Below, piece by piece: positions 37,135-52,699 of a stretch of DNA of 64,000 bases. A model generated the notes under the pieces. It ran no database searches and was not told where the DNA came from. It saw only the letters and a program-made list of their open reading frames with translations. The stretch is from NCBI GenBank assembly GCA_038245295.1, contig JBBRSP010000020.1, positions 35,765-99,764 on the forward strand. The letters run 5' to 3'. How positions within the stretch are numbered: position 1 is the stretch's first letter; the number at the start of each line of letters is the position of its first letter. Source of the DNA: Candidatus Binatia bacterium. Lineage in GTDB: Bacteria > Desulfobacterota > Binatia > HRBIN30. A program made the position numbers and the translations under genes.

Positions 37135-38198
37135 TCAACAAATCCGCGGGAGCTGTTCTCCCGAAAGGCGTTCTAGACGGCGATGGCTGCCGAGCCCGGT
37201 GCGCAGCAGCACGCGGCCGGGAGTCTCGTCGGTGATCTTGCCGATGCAGCAGGCGGCTTCCCCTCCCGGCACGGCGCGCACGGCTGCAAGCGCGAGCTCG
37301 CAGTCGGCGTCTGCGACGATCGCGAGGAAGCGGCCCTCGCACGCGACGTACAGGGGGTCGAAGCCGAGCACTTCGCACGCGGCGCGCACTTCGGCGCGGA
37401 CCGGGACCGCGGATTCGACGACGGTCATGCCGACGCCGGCCGATCCGGCGAGTTCGCACAGCGCCGTCGCGAGTCCTCCCCGCGTCGGATCGCGCAGGGT
37501 CTTCACCGAGGGAACGGCGTCGAGCAGCGCGCGCACGAGGGGAAGCACGGACGCCGAATCGGAGAGCAGCGCGGTCTGCAGGTCGACCCCGCTGCGCGCG
37601 GCCATCACCGCGATGCCGTGGTCGCCGACGGGGCCGGAGACAAGAATCGCGTCGCCCGGGCGGGCCTTGGAGGGGCCGACCTCGACGCCGTCGCGCACGC
37701 GGCCGATGCCGGACGTGTTGATGTAGATGCCGTCGCCCTTGCCGCGGTCGACGACCTTGGTGTCGCCGGTGACGACCGGCACGCCGGCCTCCGCGGCGGC
37801 GCTCGCCATCGACGCGACGATGCGGCGCAGGTCCTCGATGCGCAGGCCCTCCTCGAGCACGAGGCCGACGCTCAGCGCGAAGGGTTCGGAGCCGCACATC
37901 GCGAGGTCGTTGACGGTGCCGTGCACCGCGAGCGAACCGATGTTGCCGCCGGGGAAGAAGGCCGGCTGCACGACGAAGGTGTCGGTCGAGAACGCGAGCC
38001 GCTGCCCGCCGACCGTCAGCAGCGCACCGTCGCCGAGGGAGTCGAGGGCGGGACTTGCGAAGGCCGGCAGGAACATCTTCTCGACGAGGTTCGCGGTCTT
38101 TCGTCCGCCGCCGCCGTGGGCGAGCTGCACGATGCCCTCGTCGTCGAGGGGAATCGGGCACGCGATGCCGAGCGCCGCGCCTTCGAATCCGTTCGGCT

Positions 38199-38202
<4 letters not shown>
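37135..38202 (-). CDS. hypE: Hydrogenase maturation protein HypE
   Basis: [31 protein letters not shown]-terminal PRIC. Confidence 0.95.
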
Positions 38203-39310
<1,108 letters not shown>

Positions 39311-39311
<1 letters not shown>

Positions 39312-39652
39312 CAGCGGCCCTCCTCCAGGTCTTCGCGGCCGAAGATGCGTCGTGGTTGCCCATGGTTGTTACGCGGCGCTGCATCGACCGATGCAGCGAG
39401 GGCGTCGGCGATGGGAGCCGGCTCCGCGAGTGCATCGAGCATCGCGAGGGCCTCGAGGGTTTCGCGGGCGAGGTCCTCGTCGATCACCGCGATTGCGAAG
39501 CCGACGTGGACGAGCACGTGGTCGCCGACCGTCGCTTCGGGAACGAAGACCAGGCTCGTGTCGCGGGAGACCCCGCCGAAATCGACGCGACCGATCCGCA
39601 GTTCGCCCTGCCCGGAGATCGCCACGAGACATCCTGGGATGGCGAGGCACAT
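39311..39652 (-). CDS. hypC: Hydrogenase chaperone HypC with C-terminal extension
   Basis: MCLAIPG start, VLVHVGFAI. Confidence 0.93.
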
Positions 39653-39653
39653 C

Positions 39654-42017
39654 TCAGTACAACTCCTCGCAGCACGGCTTCGGCGCGCTGCACACGTCGA
39701 AAGAGAAAGCGCTTGGCTCGCCGCGTAGCCGGGCGGCGGCGACGACGGCCTGGCCGAGAGCGATGCCGCCGTCGTTCGGCGGGACGCGGCGGTGACGGTA
39801 CACGCGGGTCCGCTGCAAGAGTCGCGTAGACACGTCGGTGGCGAGGCGCTCGTTCTGAAAGCAGCCACCGCTTAGCACGACGGGCAAGGTCCCATACGCG
39901 GCGAGACCTACGGCGACGACGTCGTCGGCCACCGCGGCGAGCGTTGCGTGGAAGCGGCCCGACACGAGGGAAGGCCGGAGCCCGCGGACGAGATCGCCCA
40001 CGACTGCGCGGACGGCGGGCCTCAGGTCGACGACGGCGGGCGCGCCGCGCCCGGCGACCTCGATTCCGAAGTCGTAGGGGCGCGCTTCGGCGGGATCGGC
40101 GGCGAACGCGAGCCGCGTCGCGACCTCGCCTTCGTACTGCGAGACCGGCAGCGCGAGGGCGAGGGCGCCGATCGCGTCGAAGTAGCGGCCGGCCCCGTGG
40201 GCCGCCGGACAGTTCAGGCTCGCCGCGAGCATGCGGCGCACCGCGGTGATGCGCGTCGTCTCGACGTCGTCGAAGAGGCGCAGGGCCTCCAGCGGCGGGT
40301 CGCCGTCGAACGCGTCGTCGACGAGGGCGAGCGCGATGCGCCACACCTCACGGATCGCGACGTCGCCGCCCGCCAGATGAAGGGGCCTCAGCGTGGCGAG
40401 TCGACGAAAGCCTGCGTGGTCGGCGGCGAGGAGTTCGCCTCCCCAGGCCGTGCCGTCGCCGCCGTCGCCGGTCCCGTCCCACGCGAGGCCCAGCACCGGT
40501 CCTTCGAGTCCGTGTTCTGCCATCGCGGCGGCGACGTGGGCGTGGTGGTGCTGCACCGCGATGCAAGTTCGTCCTTCCTGCGAGCGCGCCCAGCGCGTCG
40601 TGAAGTAGCCGGGATGGAGGTCGTGCACGAAGACCTCCGGCGTGATGCCGACGAAGCGCGAGAAGCGTTCGACTTCCTCGTCGAATGCGGCGCAGGCCTC
40701 GTGGGTCTCGAGGTCGCCGATGTGCGGTCCCATCCATGCGAGCTGACCTGCCGCGAGGCAGAACGCATTCTTCAGGTGGGCGCCGCACGCGAGCAGGGGC
40801 TGGGGGAACGTGCGCGACATCGACACGCTGGCGGGAACCCAGCCTCGGCCACGGCGCAGGACGACCGCGTCGCCGGCGATCACGCGCGCGACCGAATCGT
40901 CGCAGCGGGCGGCGATCGCGCGGTCGTGGACTAGGAGGGCGTCGGCGATCGCGCCGCCGAGGCCGGCCAGGGCCGCGGCATCGTCCGTGAACATCGGCTC
41001 GTCGCTGAGGTTGCCCGACGTCATCACCAGCGGCGCGCCGAATGCGCGCAAGATCAACTCGTGAAGGGGCGTGTACGGCAGCAGCAGCCCGACGAGCGGG
41101 ATTCCCGGCGCGATGCCGGCGGCGAGCGGTGTGCTGGCGCGGCGTTCGACCAGCACGATGGGTGCGGCGGCGGAGACCAGCAGTTCGCGGTCGCGATCGG
41201 TGAGCGACGCGACACGCTCGGCGTCGTCGATGGATGCGACCATCACCGCGAAGGGTTTCGCGTAGCGCCGCTTGCGCGAGCGCAGGGCCGACACCGCGGC
41301 TTCGGACGAGGCGTCGCAGGCGAGGTGGTAACCGCCGAGGCCCTTGATCGCGACGACGAGGCCGCGGCGAAGAAGCTGCGCCGCCTCGAGGATGGGATCG
41401 CCGCTCCTCGCGCAGCCGTCCGCGTCGAGGAGGCTGAGGCGCGGCCCGCAGTCGGGACAGGCAACGGGCTCCGCGTGGAAGCGGCGATCCCGGACGTCCT
41501 CGTACTCGGACCGGCAGGCCTCGCACATCGGGAACGGCGCCATCGTCGTGCGCTCGCGGTCCCAGGGGACGTCGAGCGCGACCGTGTAGCGCGGTCCGCA
41601 GCGCGTGCAGTTGGTGAAGGCGTAGAGGTGGCGCCGGTTGTCGGGGTCGAGAATCTCGCGCCGGCAGTCCGGGCAGAGGGCGAGGTCCGGGGGTAGGGAC
41701 GGCTGCCTTGCGCCGCCGTCCAGGCTGGGAACGATGCAGAAGGTCTTTGGGGGCTCGTCGGGGATCGCCTCCCAGTGGAGGCCGACGATGCGAGCGGCCG
41801 GCATCGGCGGGTGTTCGAGACTGCTGAGGAATCCGCCGAGGTTCGCGTCGGCGCCGAAGGCCTCGATCGTCACGCTGCCGGTGTCGTTCCAGACCCGGCC
41901 TGTCAGTTCGCGGCCTGTCGCGAGGCGATGCACCCAAGGCCGGAAGCCGACGCCCTGGACGGATCCTTCGATCCTGATCCTGAGTCCGCCGGTCACGCGT
42001 GTGGCCTGGTCAAGCAA
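39654..42017 (-). CDS. hypF: Carbamoyltransferase HypF
   Basis: VQGVGFRP, two zinc fingers, KGLGGYHL, HDLHP, QHHHAH, PPNDGG; TTG start after GGAGGG. Confidence 0.93.
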   Translation of the reverse strand: MLDQATRVTGGLRIRIEGSVQGVGFRPWVHRLATGRELTGRVWNDTGSVTIEAFGADANLGGFLSSLEHPPMPAARIVGLHWEAIPDEPPKTFCIVPSLDGGARQPSLPPDLALCPDCRREILDPDNRRHLYAFTNCTRCGPRYTVALDVPWDRERTTMAPFPMCEACRSEYEDVRDRRFHAEPVACPDCGPRLSLLDADGCARSGDPILEAAQLLRRGLVVAIKGLGGYHLACDASSEAAVSALRSRKRRYAKPFAVMVASIDDAERVASLTDRDRELLVSAAAPIVLVERRASTPLAAGIAPGIPLVGLLLPYTPLHELILRAFGAPLVMTSGNLSDEPMFTDDAAALAGLGGAIADALLVHDRAIAARCDDSVARVIAGDAVVLRRGRGWVPASVSMSRTFPQPLLACGAHLKNAFCLAAGQLAWMGPHIGDLETHEACAAFDEEVERFSRFVGITPEVFVHDLHPGYFTTRWARSQEGRTCIAVQHHHAHVAAAMAEHGLEGPVLGLAWDGTGDGGDGTAWGGELLAADHAGFRRLATLRPLHLAGGDVAIREVWRIALALVDDAFDGDPPLEALRLFDDVETTRITAVRRMLAASLNCPAAHGAGRYFDAIGALALALPVSQYEGEVATRLAFAADPAEARPYDFGIEVAGRGAPAVVDLRPAVRAVVGDLVRGLRPSLVSGRFHATLAAVADDVVAVGLAAYGTLPVVLSGGCFQNERLATDVSTRLLQRTRVYRHRRVPPNDGGIALGQAVVAAARLRGEPSAFSFDVCSAPKPCCEELY

Positions 42018-42043
42018 GTGCGTCCCTCCGCTCTCGAGGGTGG

Positions 42044-42059
42044 AGCACGATTCAGGCCA
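42044..42059 (-). promoter_or_regulatory. Putative sigma54 (-24/-12) promoter of the hyp-hyb operon
   Basis: TGGCCTGAATCGTGCT has exact GG-N10-GC spacing, 27 nt upstream of the hypF start. Confidence 0.55.
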
Positions 42060-42228
42060 TCGATGCGTGGAACGAGAGTAGCTGCCCGGACGTGACGACG
42101 CGGCGCGCGGGCGCGCCAGGCTTCCCTGGATTTGCGCATTGCGCCGGGAATTTCCCGAGAAGATGGAATTGCCGGGGGCGCCTCGGGAGGACGGTGTGGA
42201 AGGGGTCGCAGGCGGGCGAGCGAATCTC

Positions 42229-42276
42229 CGTATTCCCCGGGACACCCATCCGCGTATTCCCCGGGACACCCATCCG
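42229..42276 (+). repeat. Perfect 24 bp tandem duplication
   Basis: CGTATTCCCCGGGACACCCATCCG x2; related motif at 61308-61323 and 30321. Confidence 0.9.
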
Positions 42277-45794: not shown

Positions 45795-46265
45795 CTACTC
45801 GTGGAGTTGTTGCGCCAGATAGTGCGACTCGCCGAGTGTCTTGATCAGGTCGAGTTGTGTCTCGAGCCAATCGAGGTGCTCCTCTTCCGAAACGAGGAGC
45901 TTCTCCAATAGGTCGCGGCTACCGTTGTCACCGACTTCGACGGCGAGGGCGATGCTTTTGTTGAGCTTGGCGATGGCGGCGACCTCGAGGTCGAGATCGA
46001 GTTTGAGTTGCTCCGGCACGGTTTCCCCGATGCGGACCTTGTTCATGCGCTGCATGTTGGGAATCCCTTCCAGGAACAAGATCCGCTCGATCAACTCGTC
46101 GGCGTGTTTCATCTCGCCGATCGATTCCTTGTGGTCGATCGCCGCCAAGCGCTTGAAACCCCAATTGGCGCACATCTTGGCGTGAATGAAGTACTGGTTG
46201 ATGCCCGTAAGCTCTGCCGTCAGAATCTCGTTCAGCGCTTCGATCAGACTAGCGTTGCCTTTCAT
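45795..46265 (-). CDS. bfr: Bacterioferritin
   Basis: MKG start, ELTGINQYFIH, ESIGEMKHAD (heme Met), EEEHLDWLETQ. Confidence 0.97.
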   Translation of the reverse strand: MKGNASLIEALNEILTAELTGINQYFIHAKMCANWGFKRLAAIDHKESIGEMKHADELIERILFLEGIPNMQRMNKVRIGETVPEQLKLDLDLEVAAIAKLNKSIALAVEVGDNGSRDLLEKLLVSEEEHLDWLETQLDLIKTLGESHYLAQQLHE

Positions 46266-48186: not shown

Positions 48187-48702
48187 TCACTCCGGCGGGA
48201 AATCACGCCGCGGGCTGGCGAACCACATCTCGCCGATCGGCACGACGATGTAGGCGCCAAACCCAAGCCACTCGGCGATCCATGCGAACAATAGGCCCCA
48301 GGAGAATGCGGCTGAGGCGTAACGGATCAGCCACGGCATGATCAGATCGAGTGCCAATCCAACCATGCCGAGGATCAGAAAAAATCGCTTCCAGAACGCG
48401 TCCAGCGTGCTGGCGACGAAAAGATGCGCCAGGACGAGATACACGACACCCATGATGAAGGCGTGGAAATGTGTGCCCTCGACAAGTTGGCGAAATGTCT
48501 TTTCGAAGGTCATCTCGGCGCCGAGCTCACCGCCACGATAGAACGCTGCGATACGCGTTGGGGTCAGCCCGATGTGACCGATCTGAAAGGCGCCCGACGT
48601 CGCCATACCGATGGCGACGAACAACAAGAATGCCGTGTAGATGAGACGAATCTCGAGGCGCGCGTATCGCAGCAGATAGCTATTCCCGGCAAAGGCTTTC
48701 AC
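48187..48702 (-). CDS. Small multi-pass membrane protein with His cluster (function unknown)
   Basis: GTG start overlaps apbE stop, AAGGAG site; about 4 hydrophobic helices; THFHAFIMGVVYLVLAHLF. Confidence 0.75.
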   Translation of the reverse strand: MKAFAGNSYLLRYARLEIRLIYTAFLLFVAIGMATSGAFQIGHIGLTPTRIAAFYRGGELGAEMTFEKTFRQLVEGTHFHAFIMGVVYLVLAHLFVASTLDAFWKRFFLILGMVGLALDLIMPWLIRYASAAFSWGLLFAWIAEWLGFGAYIVVPIGEMWFASPRRDFPPE

Positions 48703-49703
48703 AGCAGCGGCTCCTTGATCTGCGTGTGCGCGTTGTCGGCGCGGAACGTGACGCGGCCGAGCCTGGTCCAACCCTTTGTAGAGGCAATGATAGCCCCCTC
48801 GAGCAGGGGGGCGGCGGCGATTGTTGCGTGGCCCGTGCGCGACTGTTCGATCAGTAGAGCCTTCGAATAGGCTTCCGCGTCGGTGGCGTTGTTGGCAACC
48901 ACGACCGCCAGCGCCGCGGCTCGCAGCGGCAGGCCATCGCGTGGATCAATGATGTGTCCAACTCGCCGCGCCGCGATGCGATGTTCGTGACCGAATACGC
49001 TGGATACCGAGAGTGCCTGATTGCACAGGGTGAGGGTCCCGAGCCGCCGCGCTGAGTCGAGGCTGCGCAGCGATAGTCGCCAACCCGATGCCCCCGCCGG
49101 AGCGCCCATGGCGAAGACGCTGCTTTCACCGAGGTTCAGCAAGGCGCGATTGATTCCGCTGCGACGCAGGATGTCGACGCAGGTGTCGATGGCGTAGCCC
49201 TTGGCGATACCGTCGAAGTCGTAGATCTCGCCGGTCCCACGGCGGATGATGTGATCACCGATCATCGGTGCACCGGTAGCTGAGGGCAGCGCGGCGCTGA
49301 CCGTTGCCGGTGCCGGCCAGGTGGAAGCTGCTCTCCAGATCTGGCTCAAACGTCCGATGCGGGCGTCGAAACGGCCGCCGGTCTGCTGTGTCAGCGCGAG
49401 GGATCGACTCAGAAGGTCCTGCATCTCCGAGCTGATGGCGACCGACGGCGACTCGGCGGCGTTGAGATGATTGAGCTCACTGTCCGGATCGTAGCGCGAA
49501 AAATGCGACTCCAGGGCGCGCGCCCGTTGAAAACACTGGCGCATCGCCGCGCGTGCCGATACGGGGGCGCCGTGTTCGGCGGTGATCGAGAAGTAGGTGC
49601 CCATCACGTAGTGCACTTCGGTCAGCTGCTCGGCGTCCAGCGGCCTTGCGGCGCAGGCGAAGAATACGCCGCTGAGTAACAGGCGATGGAGCGGTCGACT
49701 CAT
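48699..49703 (-). CDS. apbE: FAD:protein FMN transferase
   Basis: VMGT, SRYDPDSEL, GRFD, DFDGIAKGYAID, HIIDPRDG, DAEAYSKA. Confidence 0.9.
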   Translation of the reverse strand: MSRPLHRLLLSGVFFACAARPLDAEQLTEVHYVMGTYFSITAEHGAPVSARAAMRQCFQRARALESHFSRYDPDSELNHLNAAESPSVAISSEMQDLLSRSLALTQQTGGRFDARIGRLSQIWRAASTWPAPATVSAALPSATGAPMIGDHIIRRGTGEIYDFDGIAKGYAIDTCVDILRRSGINRALLNLGESSVFAMGAPAGASGWRLSLRSLDSARRLGTLTLCNQALSVSSVFGHEHRIAARRVGHIIDPRDGLPLRAAALAVVVANNATDAEAYSKALLIEQSRTGHATIAAAPLLEGAIIASTKGWTRLGRVTFRADNAHTQIKEPLL

Positions 49704-50335
49704 TTGTCACCCGCCGCAGGAGCGCTCGGCGCCGCCGTCGTCGCGGTGGCGACGGCGAGAGCTTTCTTCACGGCACGGCTGGCGGCGTCGACGGACAGAG
49801 TCGCCCCGGCGATGTTCTGGATATCCCCCGGCGCTTTCAACGAGTTTGTCTTGTCCTTGTCGCGATACTGCTTGAGGAAGCGCGGCGCGCGGATCTCGCC
49901 GCCGTAGGCCTCGCGGTAGGCCATGACGGCGACATCGCTGATGCTGCCGTCGTTGCGCACGCCGACGATGAACGTGATGGGCCGGTGTTTGCCGATCTCC
50001 TCGACAACGACCGCGCTGCCGATTGGCTGGCCGTCGTGGCTCGCCGCAAAGACGACATACGACTCCTCCCACACGGAGGGTTCCTCGGGCTGCAGGCGCT
50101 CACGAATGCTTTGGCGCAATTCGGCCGATGCCTGAACCACGGAGCGAATGAAGGTTGCCTCGGGAAATACCGCATGCGGCGCGTCCTCTTCGCTGAGAAA
50201 AACACCTTCCTGCGCGTGGACGCCGCGCGCTAGCGACAGGCACAGCACGCCGAGCAGCGCGAGCAGCCACACGACTACGGGCCGTCGTCGTGTCATGGCG
50301 ATGGTGCCGGATGAATCTACTCCTGAGCGCTGCAT
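49700..50335 (-). CDS. Exported FMN-binding (flavinylation substrate) protein
   Basis: Signal peptide; IGKHRPIT, YREAYGGEI, FLKQY, IQNIAGATLS. Alternative start at 50296. Confidence 0.88.
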   Translation of the reverse strand: MQRSGVDSSGTIAMTRRRPVVVWLLALLGVLCLSLARGVHAQEGVFLSEEDAPHAVFPEATFIRSVVQASAELRQSIRERLQPEEPSVWEESYVVFAASHDGQPIGSAVVVEEIGKHRPITFIVGVRNDGSISDVAVMAYREAYGGEIRAPRFLKQYRDKDKTNSLKAPGDIQNIAGATLSVDAASRAVKKALAVATATTAAPSAPAAGDK

Positions 50336-52682: not shown

Positions 52683-52699
52683 TTGAAACTCATTATCAA
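52683..52699. promoter_or_regulatory. Fur-box-like palindrome
   Basis: TTGAAACTCATTATCAA: 2 mismatches to the 7-1-7 TGATAATnATTATCA, lying between a minus-strand TTGACA (52720-52725) and the start codon. Confidence 0.7.

Follow-up and report, generated by a model that had tools for sequence, protein, structure and literature searches.

The window, a stretch of 64,000 nucleotides (64 kb) assigned to a Candidatus Binatia bacterium, harbors a minus-strand operon that starts with the gene for a cytochrome c-FTR1 fusion and continues with genes for an FMN_bind protein, the flavin transferase ApbE, a small four-TM protein, a porin-like protein and a bacterioferritin (Table 1). The open reading frame between apbE and the porin-like gene is confirmed as a genuine gene for a four-helix membrane protein. 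Its GTG start codon overlaps the apbE stop codon (GTGA), an AAGGAG motif is located 9 nt 5' of this start, whose position is the same in the homologs, and the plus-strand frame over the same interval is interrupted by stops. The overlap and the AAGGAG motif agree with the translational coupling to apbE that a first-pass annotation had read from the letters. The same annotation had described about four hydrophobic helices within 171 residues, which is borne out by a hydropathy profile with four peaks (KD19 1.7-2.2) and by an AF2 monomer model from a 102-sequence alignment, showing four long helices at residues 16-43, 70-96, 102-128 and 131-161 (pLDDT 94.5, pTM 0.87).

Table 1. Genes and regulatory feature of the operon, with positions in the window
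Feature	Position	Strand	Remarks
Bacterioferritin	45795..46265	minus	downstream of four-TM gene; TIGR00754 E 4.2e-63
Porin-like outer-membrane protein, 535 aa	46529..48136	minus	signal-peptide-like N-terminus, C-terminal Phe
PF27139 (Aq_1264_TM) four-TM protein	48702-48187	minus	171 aa + stop; E75, H78, H80, H93 on TM2
ApbE flavin transferase, 334 aa	48699..49703	minus	PF02424 E 9.5e-48
FMN_bind protein, 198 aa from likely ATG	49700..50296	minus	PF04205 E 9.8e-11; signal-peptide-like N-terminus
Diheme cytochrome c-FTR1 iron permease fusion, 764 aa	50370..52664	minus	PF03239 E 5.8e-34, PF00034
Candidate Fur box, 17-bp palindrome	52683..52699		delta-proteobacterial consensus, 2 mismatches

The His residues of the four-TM protein are located at positions 43, 78, 80 and 93. 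H78-F79-H80 and H93 share the helix 70-96 (TM2), in agreement with the earlier description of an H-F-H motif followed by a His 13 residues further on the same helix; their codons are found at 48471-48469 (H78), 48465-48463 (H80) and 48426-48424 (H93). With ideal helical geometry the angle between H78 and H80 is about 160 degrees, which places them on opposite faces, and that between H80 and H93 about 140 degrees.

The neighboring FMN_bind protein carries the motif N-I-A-G-A-T, in which Ala replaces the first position of [S/T]GA[S/T] and Thr166 is the putative flavinylation site. At 49795-49815 of the window, and likewise in FMN_bind homologs from Binatia and Methylomirabilota, A-G-A-T takes the place of the usual [S/T]-G-A-[S/T], and the acceptor Thr is kept. 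The fusion protein contains CxxCH at residues 147 and 239 and REGFE at 454 and 572; the two c-type heme domains precede the permease, and a third REGxE-like motif, REGVE at 45, is N-terminal. The porin-like protein has no Pfam match over the cut-off, a homolog matches PF07396 (E 3.3e-6), and the protein is probably of the 'psp' type, judging by the description in the accessible text of PMC545781. The operon holds no gene for an NAD(P)H- or quinone-binding subunit.

The candidate Fur box is located 19-35 nt 5' of the ATG of the FTR1 fusion, the first gene of the operon, and just downstream of a TTGACA hexamer (52725-52720). It is the sole match in the window to the delta-proteobacterial consensus given in the accessible text of PMC545781, with a chance mean of 0.07 and 6 of 100 shuffles reaching one match, and the E. 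coli-type consensus matches nowhere in the window with 3 mismatches allowed. Elsewhere in the window (37135-42269), the translations read as a hydrogenase-maturation run of hypF, hypC, hypD, hypE and a hypA-like gene.

Family, conserved histidines and gene neighborhood

A local scan of the four-TM protein against Pfam and NCBIfam gave no matches, and in this respect the first-pass label "unannotated" holds, but precomputed annotation places PF27139.1 on the protein and on all 102 homolog matches. PF27139 is a newer Pfam family, and its name, Aq_1264_TM, gives no function. The ESM Atlas likewise returned Aq_1264_TM (PF27139), with a cosine of 0.96 and 232 of 256 features shared, and a search there with PF27139 left out produced no usable match. 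The closest named relatives belong to Candidatus Binatia; within the phylum of the window 26 of 301 genomes encode homologs, as do 28 of 101 Latescibacterota genomes, and a plasmid search had no match. Two homologs are fused to ApbE; a search aimed at longer fused forms came up empty but missed even these two, and so carries little weight.

In the close set (102 matches from 276 candidates, query included; 101 relatives counted) E75, H78, H80 and H93 are each present in 101 of 101 relatives and H43 in 76. For the distant set, 99 sequences of 140-270 aa were kept from the best 150 of 313 cluster representatives at E <= 0.001: H78 and H80 occur in 99 of 99, H93 in 81 of 98 non-gap rows and E75 in 76 of 99, and H43 is not conserved. 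The conservation of His expected in the first-pass annotation is accordingly complete for H78 and H80, but not for H93. Conserved His residues are confined to TM2, and the only conserved polar residues are E75 and D119. Since the arrangement of H78, H80 and H93 recurs across both homolog sets, it is not due to chance.

H93 is absent from 21 of 62 loci with H-x-H, namely nine cytochrome c-inserted homologs, which are described below, and 12 other loci; H93 is missing at six loci with an FMN link, and at six loci both the insert and an FMN gene are absent. Because H93 has been lost in several subfamilies, a His pair 13 residues apart is not the core of the family, whose invariant feature is the H-x-H motif at the predicted periplasmic end of TM2. 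One short subfamily of about 150 aa (L087, L088, L089, L091 and L094) has H-x-H without H93 and harbors apbE and/or FMN_bind downstream, with no porin detected. A very distant member with H-F-H-S-H-G (L074:6075-6674) is located outside the flavin/porin context, in a genome that also holds a normal PF27139 copy.

The linkage to apbE and FMN-binding genes on which the first-pass annotation made its reading depend is supported by 24 close loci, with FMN_bind at 23, apbE at 22 and the porin at 21 of them; the single locus without FMN_bind begins 20 nt before the four-TM gene. FTR1, fur or bfr is found at 16 of the 24. The sample of the window's own phylum (20 regions from 18 of 25 other positive genomes) contains 12 loci without a CxxCH insert, of which ten have FMN_bind, ten the porin and seven apbE; the equivalent 19 loci of the Latescibacterota sample (20 regions) have FMN_bind in 15, the porin in ten and apbE in five cases. 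Of 462 metagenome loci, called Nitrospira-like after a member of their cluster, the best 80 were counted; among these, many of them on short contigs and with near-identical sequences, FMN_bind is present at 76, the porin at 62, a divergent apbE at 48 and bfr at 45. These counts define a core module of porin, FMN_bind and PF27139 protein. The apbE gene is often linked but movable, being frequently located elsewhere or divergent, whereas FMN_bind and porin are the most constant neighbors.

Delta-type Fur boxes with at most 2 mismatches are present in two sets of FMN-linked loci, at 12 of 23 in one and at 5 of 10 in the other, versus 0.3 expected in each case; they precede the FTR1 fusion, FMN_bind, the porin, fur or bfr. 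A delta-type 2-mismatch box is also present at three of ten non-FMN loci, and none was found at 15 Latescibacterota loci. A 7-1-7 variant of the box (3 mismatches) is located between apbE and the porin at all 48 Nitrospira-like loci with both genes. One of the Nitrospira-like loci (L095:2700-6519) shows the divergent apbE and a conserved Fur-type box after a TTGACA promoter, a small lipoprotein-like gene between porin and FMN_bind, and two bacterioferritin genes downstream.

Two-unit fusions and cytochrome c insertions

The four-TM unit is duplicated in tandem in seven proteins of 303-315 aa with 27-87% mutual identity (L069:1550-2497, L071:6620-7567, P0282-P0289), which come from Aquificaceae and from the phylum of the window. 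Alignment of each half to the single-unit profile reveals a complementary loss of His: unit 1 has kept H78 and lost H80 and H93 in 7/7 proteins, and unit 2 has kept H80 and H93 in 7/7 and lost H78 in 6/7, with an H-P-H motif in unit 2 of P0286. Unit 1 retains E/Q75 together with H78, and position 75 of unit 2 is K/R in 6/7. In four of the seven fusions, position 97 of unit 1, a helical turn past the lost H93, is occupied by His. Two residues about 160 degrees apart could hardly bind one ligand jointly within a single subunit. The complementary loss is what would be expected of a site shared by H78 and H80 of the next unit (H80'). The sequences thus point to an H78/H80' site between subunits, and a two-unit protein would be compatible with an even-numbered ring as well as with two-thirds of a trimer.

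This distribution bears on the anatomy that the first-pass annotation had borrowed from diheme b cytochromes with His pairs 13-15 residues apart on one helix. In such a wire H80 and H93, which are separated by 13 residues (~20 Å) on TM2, would each be matched, in a homodimer, with the equivalent His of the other subunit and so hold two stacked hemes, through which electrons from a cytosolic donor would cross the membrane. The invariance of H93 in the close set, the FMN linkage of 40 of the 41 H93-bearing loci and the joint retention of H80 and H93 in unit 2 of all seven fusions would suit this arrangement, and MsrQ-like and FezC cytochromes have been modeled as homodimers (PMC11334425, accessible text). 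It nevertheless leaves no role for the equally invariant H78, the sole motif His kept in unit 1; H80 and H93 diverge by the angle given above, H93 is missing from a third of the H-x-H loci (21/62), the monomer has no second His-bearing helix, and the fusions split H78 and H80 between their units. The diheme wire is therefore replaced by the inter-subunit H78/H80' site as our reading of the motif, and we regard it as clearly improbable.

A second line of evidence is provided by nine of the 40 fetched regions, in which the homolog carries an insert of about 80 residues with CxxCH and an invariant Met in the TM1-TM2 loop (L063:6600-7379, L065, L066, L067, L068, L070, L072, L073 and L086). The inserted mono-heme c domain weakly resembles PccH and the C-terminal heme domain of hydrazine synthase alpha (E ~0.04), relative to which it is apparently circularly permuted. 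Hemes of the c type are attached outside the cytoplasm, and the TM1-TM2 loop and the following H-x-H motif should therefore face the periplasm; under this topology H93 would lie about 20 Å deeper, toward the predicted cytoplasmic end of TM2. FMN_bind, apbE and porin are found near none of the nine inserted forms, all of which lack H93 and in which E75 is not conserved. Judged by its sequences, the family takes up a redox carrier beside H-x-H, and the mutual exclusion of insert and flavin genes matches the flavin/cytochrome interchange described in the accessible text of PMC8238504. In a tree of 63 rows and 96 columns a single origin or two would suffice to account for the nine CxxCH forms, and the seven fusions probably go back to a single duplication, so that the two patterns do not represent many independent events. 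Two of the nine inserted forms adjoin other c-type cytochrome genes: L063 lies next to a diheme cytochrome c gene, and L072 is located between a diheme cytochrome c gene and a run of cytochrome c7, molybdopterin and ferredoxin genes.

The first-pass annotation had named metal binding as its alternative. E75, H78 and H80' could bind Fe (or Cu) between the subunits, the protein serving in metal binding, sensing or carriage for FTR1 or the porin, with the flavoprotein reducing the bound iron. The conservation of E75 (101/101 close, 76/99 among the distant sequences from the best 150 of 313), its covariation with H78 in the fusions and the iron-uptake context are consistent with this scenario, and complementary His loss suits any shared two-His site. 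What speaks for electron transfer, however, is that a cytochrome c has been inserted and that this insert and the flavin genes exclude each other; FTR1 already provides a permease at many loci, and E75 and D119, the only conserved polar residues, include one that is not retained in the CxxCH forms. A non-heme site is thus unlikely in our estimation. The redox role and the oligomeric state put forward in the first-pass annotation are both supported, the oligomer by way of the presumed inter-subunit site.

Structural comparisons and a proposed mechanism

Foldseek searches with the monomer and two-unit models found nothing at E <= 0.001, and the top VIA ranks are generic soluble four-helix bundles with Z scores of up to 8.5 for the monomer and 9.9 for the fusion. 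The two-unit model was computed for P0288 from 12 fusion rows and 91 single-unit rows, the latter mostly aligning to unit 2, and forms one defined 8-helix body (pLDDT 89.6, pTM 0.86). All of its listed matches spanning both units with at least 190 residues and an rmsd of at most 6 Å are subunits of heme-copper oxidases or NOR: 6t6v (Z 8.7, rmsd 4.4, 206 aligned), 3mk7 (Z 8.6, rmsd 5.1, 195 aligned), 7deg (Z 8.3, rmsd 4.3, 194 aligned) and 7w5z_C1 (Z 8.3, rmsd 6.0, 199 aligned). These oxidase/NOR scores (Z 7-8.7) are below those of soluble four-helix bundles and in the range where VIA warns that helical bundles give little information; ZnT transporters likewise cover both units (Z 6.1-7.3), and the monomer matches a heme-copper oxidase at Z 7.0, within the noise for helical bundles. 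Three of the four oxidase alignments extend from TM2 of unit 1 and oxidase residues 46-88 to the oxidase C-terminus. The ligands of the low-spin heme of oxidases come from TM2 and TM10, and in the models the aligned region would correspond to the arrangement around this heme. TM1 is omitted or differently placed in most structural matches.

A profile-profile comparison of PF27139 with oxidase TM9-12 (hhalign; oxidase profile of 24 sequences) gave a probability of 0.57% over 13 columns, which fall on both H-x-H motifs, and the positive control, oxidase unit 1 versus unit 3, reached 97.5%. Clear homology to heme-copper oxidases was rejected on the basis of this probability below 1%. Kinship is thus suggested by the modeled structure, but not supported by sequence profiles, and the PF27139 protein may work like an oxidase repeat without any implied membership. 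The further candidates heme A synthase (top Foldseek match of the two-unit model; TM 0.23, rmsd 18.7; VIA Z 5.2 over one unit), which shares an E-x-x-H motif with the PF27139 protein, and a cytochrome c555 trimer from the PDB profile search, a spurious triple-repeat match with no stretch significant alone, were also discarded. DUF2871 matches weakly in 2 of 102 family members (E 0.043) and has four weak matches in 151 genomes of the phylum, too rare for a profile.

TM2-TM4 of the monomer model align with MAPEG proteins, e.g., 6ssw (Z 5.0, rmsd 3.1, 93 residues), with matches overall at Z 5-6.8, an rmsd of 3-8 Å and a poorly placed TM1. This likeness would accord with a heme-dependent enzyme or heme-handling protein instead of an electron carrier, comparable to styrene oxide isomerase, a trimer with an interface heme and one axial His (PMC12502698, accessible text). 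Two invariant His residues rather suggest a six-coordinate heme and the linkage is to a flavoprotein or a cytochrome c, and we regard such a function as highly improbable. Styrene oxide isomerase is not among the matches listed in any fold search.

The explanation that we favor, and hold to be somewhat probable, is an oligomeric b-type cytochrome with a bis-His heme at the subunit interface, which would supply electrons to a flavinylated protein of the periplasm in the service of iron uptake. Each subunit would be a four-helix bundle with cytoplasmic N- and C-termini, in which H78 and H80 are exposed on opposite faces of TM2 near the periplasmic surface, and heme b would be gripped by H78 of one subunit and H80 of its neighbor. 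In helix X of heme-copper oxidases an H-x-H motif serves two sites, a use that the proposed interface heme resembles. Electrons would pass from a membrane donor, probably a quinol, via the interface heme to the periplasmic FMN_bind protein flavinylated by ApbE, which most likely reduces ferric iron arriving through the dedicated porin, before the FTR1 permease, and the operon would be under the control of Fur. The reductive direction of the flow is proposed because covalently bound FMN has a low potential; the transfer from quinol to FMN may, however, be uphill, which counts against this best reading. H93 would be an accessory of the porin-linked subfamily, as a quinone-site His or as ligand of a second heme on the symmetry axis.

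A more far-reaching version is possible but doubtful: PF27139 would be a free-standing core repeat of heme-copper oxidases that forms rings with a bis-His heme b at every interface. As an electron hub in the membrane with exchangeable partners, the ring would work in some cases with the flavinylated protein and the porin, in Fur-controlled reduction of iron, and in others with a c-type cytochrome inserted into the protein itself. The two-unit fusions would then represent a natural intermediate in which the low-spin heme site alone is retained. If the oxidase-like packing is true, the protein would offer a 170-residue minimal model for the assembly of the oxidase low-spin heme site from single repeats.

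Relation to known systems

Single-unit homologs of heme-copper oxidases are four-TM proteins whose second helix opens with H-x-H, and single-unit four-TM relatives were reportedly described by Pei et al. in 2014. The PF27139 protein shares the four helices and the H-F-H motif starting the second of them, and subunit I of heme-copper oxidases/NOR is the best membrane-protein alignment of its two-unit model; unlike the oxidases it lacks the CuB His pair and an oxidase gene context. Single-unit oxidase relatives are cited together with YgdD/DUF423 in the accessible text of PMC4602095. In contrast to canonical diheme cytochromes b of the bc1/b6 and FdnI types, which have two helices, each with a His pair 13-15 residues apart, the conserved His residues of PF27139 are located on TM2 only.

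Membrane cytochromes in apbE clusters that are linked to iron uptake are already known (PMC8238504, PMC11334425, accessible text). As in the case of PepSY/FoxB, MsrQ-like, DUF4405 and FezC proteins, PF27139 is a small His-bearing membrane protein in a cluster with apbE, FMN_bind and iron transport genes; apbE and the flavinylated substrate co-localize with it in the window and at 22/24 and 23/24 close loci, respectively, and it probably does the same job. No PepSY, MsrQ, DUF4405 or FezC domain was found in Pfam and NCBIfam or among the families listed for the 102 members. According to the accessible text of these papers the flavinylation cytochromes have four central His residues, a six-helix core and two heme sites, whereas PF27139 has four TM helices, H-x-H and an optional His, and its module differs from theirs by the dedicated porin. 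The systems that the accessible text of PMC8238504 and PMC11334425 names do not include PF27139, the cluster list in supplementary file 1 of PMC8238504 may include such loci, and a full-text search covering papers outside subscription journals returned no description of PF27139/aq_1264 or of the porin/ApbE module. The protein is thus real and, within the texts covered, undescribed, and an interface heme as proposed here would set it apart in design from the flavin-linked cytochromes known so far. In flavinylation surveys many apbE/FMN_bind clusters came without a recognized electron carrier in the membrane, a slot that PF27139 would fill in Nitrospira-like nitrifiers, Methylomirabilota, Binatia, Latescibacterota and Aquificaceae, and the module points to an undescribed Fur-controlled route of iron acquisition.

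P19-FTR1 clusters with an FMN_bind gene, as described in the accessible text of PMC8238504, likewise harbor an FTR1 permease beside a flavinylated protein; in contrast, no P19 gene was seen in the operon of the window, which has instead a porin, the diheme cytochrome c-FTR1 fusion and the PF27139 protein. The psp porin of the delta-proteobacterial Fur regulon (PMC545781) shares a weak likeness to PF07396 and Fur boxes of the same consensus with the porin studied here. Its account, as far as the accessible text goes, covers the porin and not the flavoprotein or the membrane protein, and reports homologs in Aquifex; PF27139 fusions occur in Aquificaceae as well.
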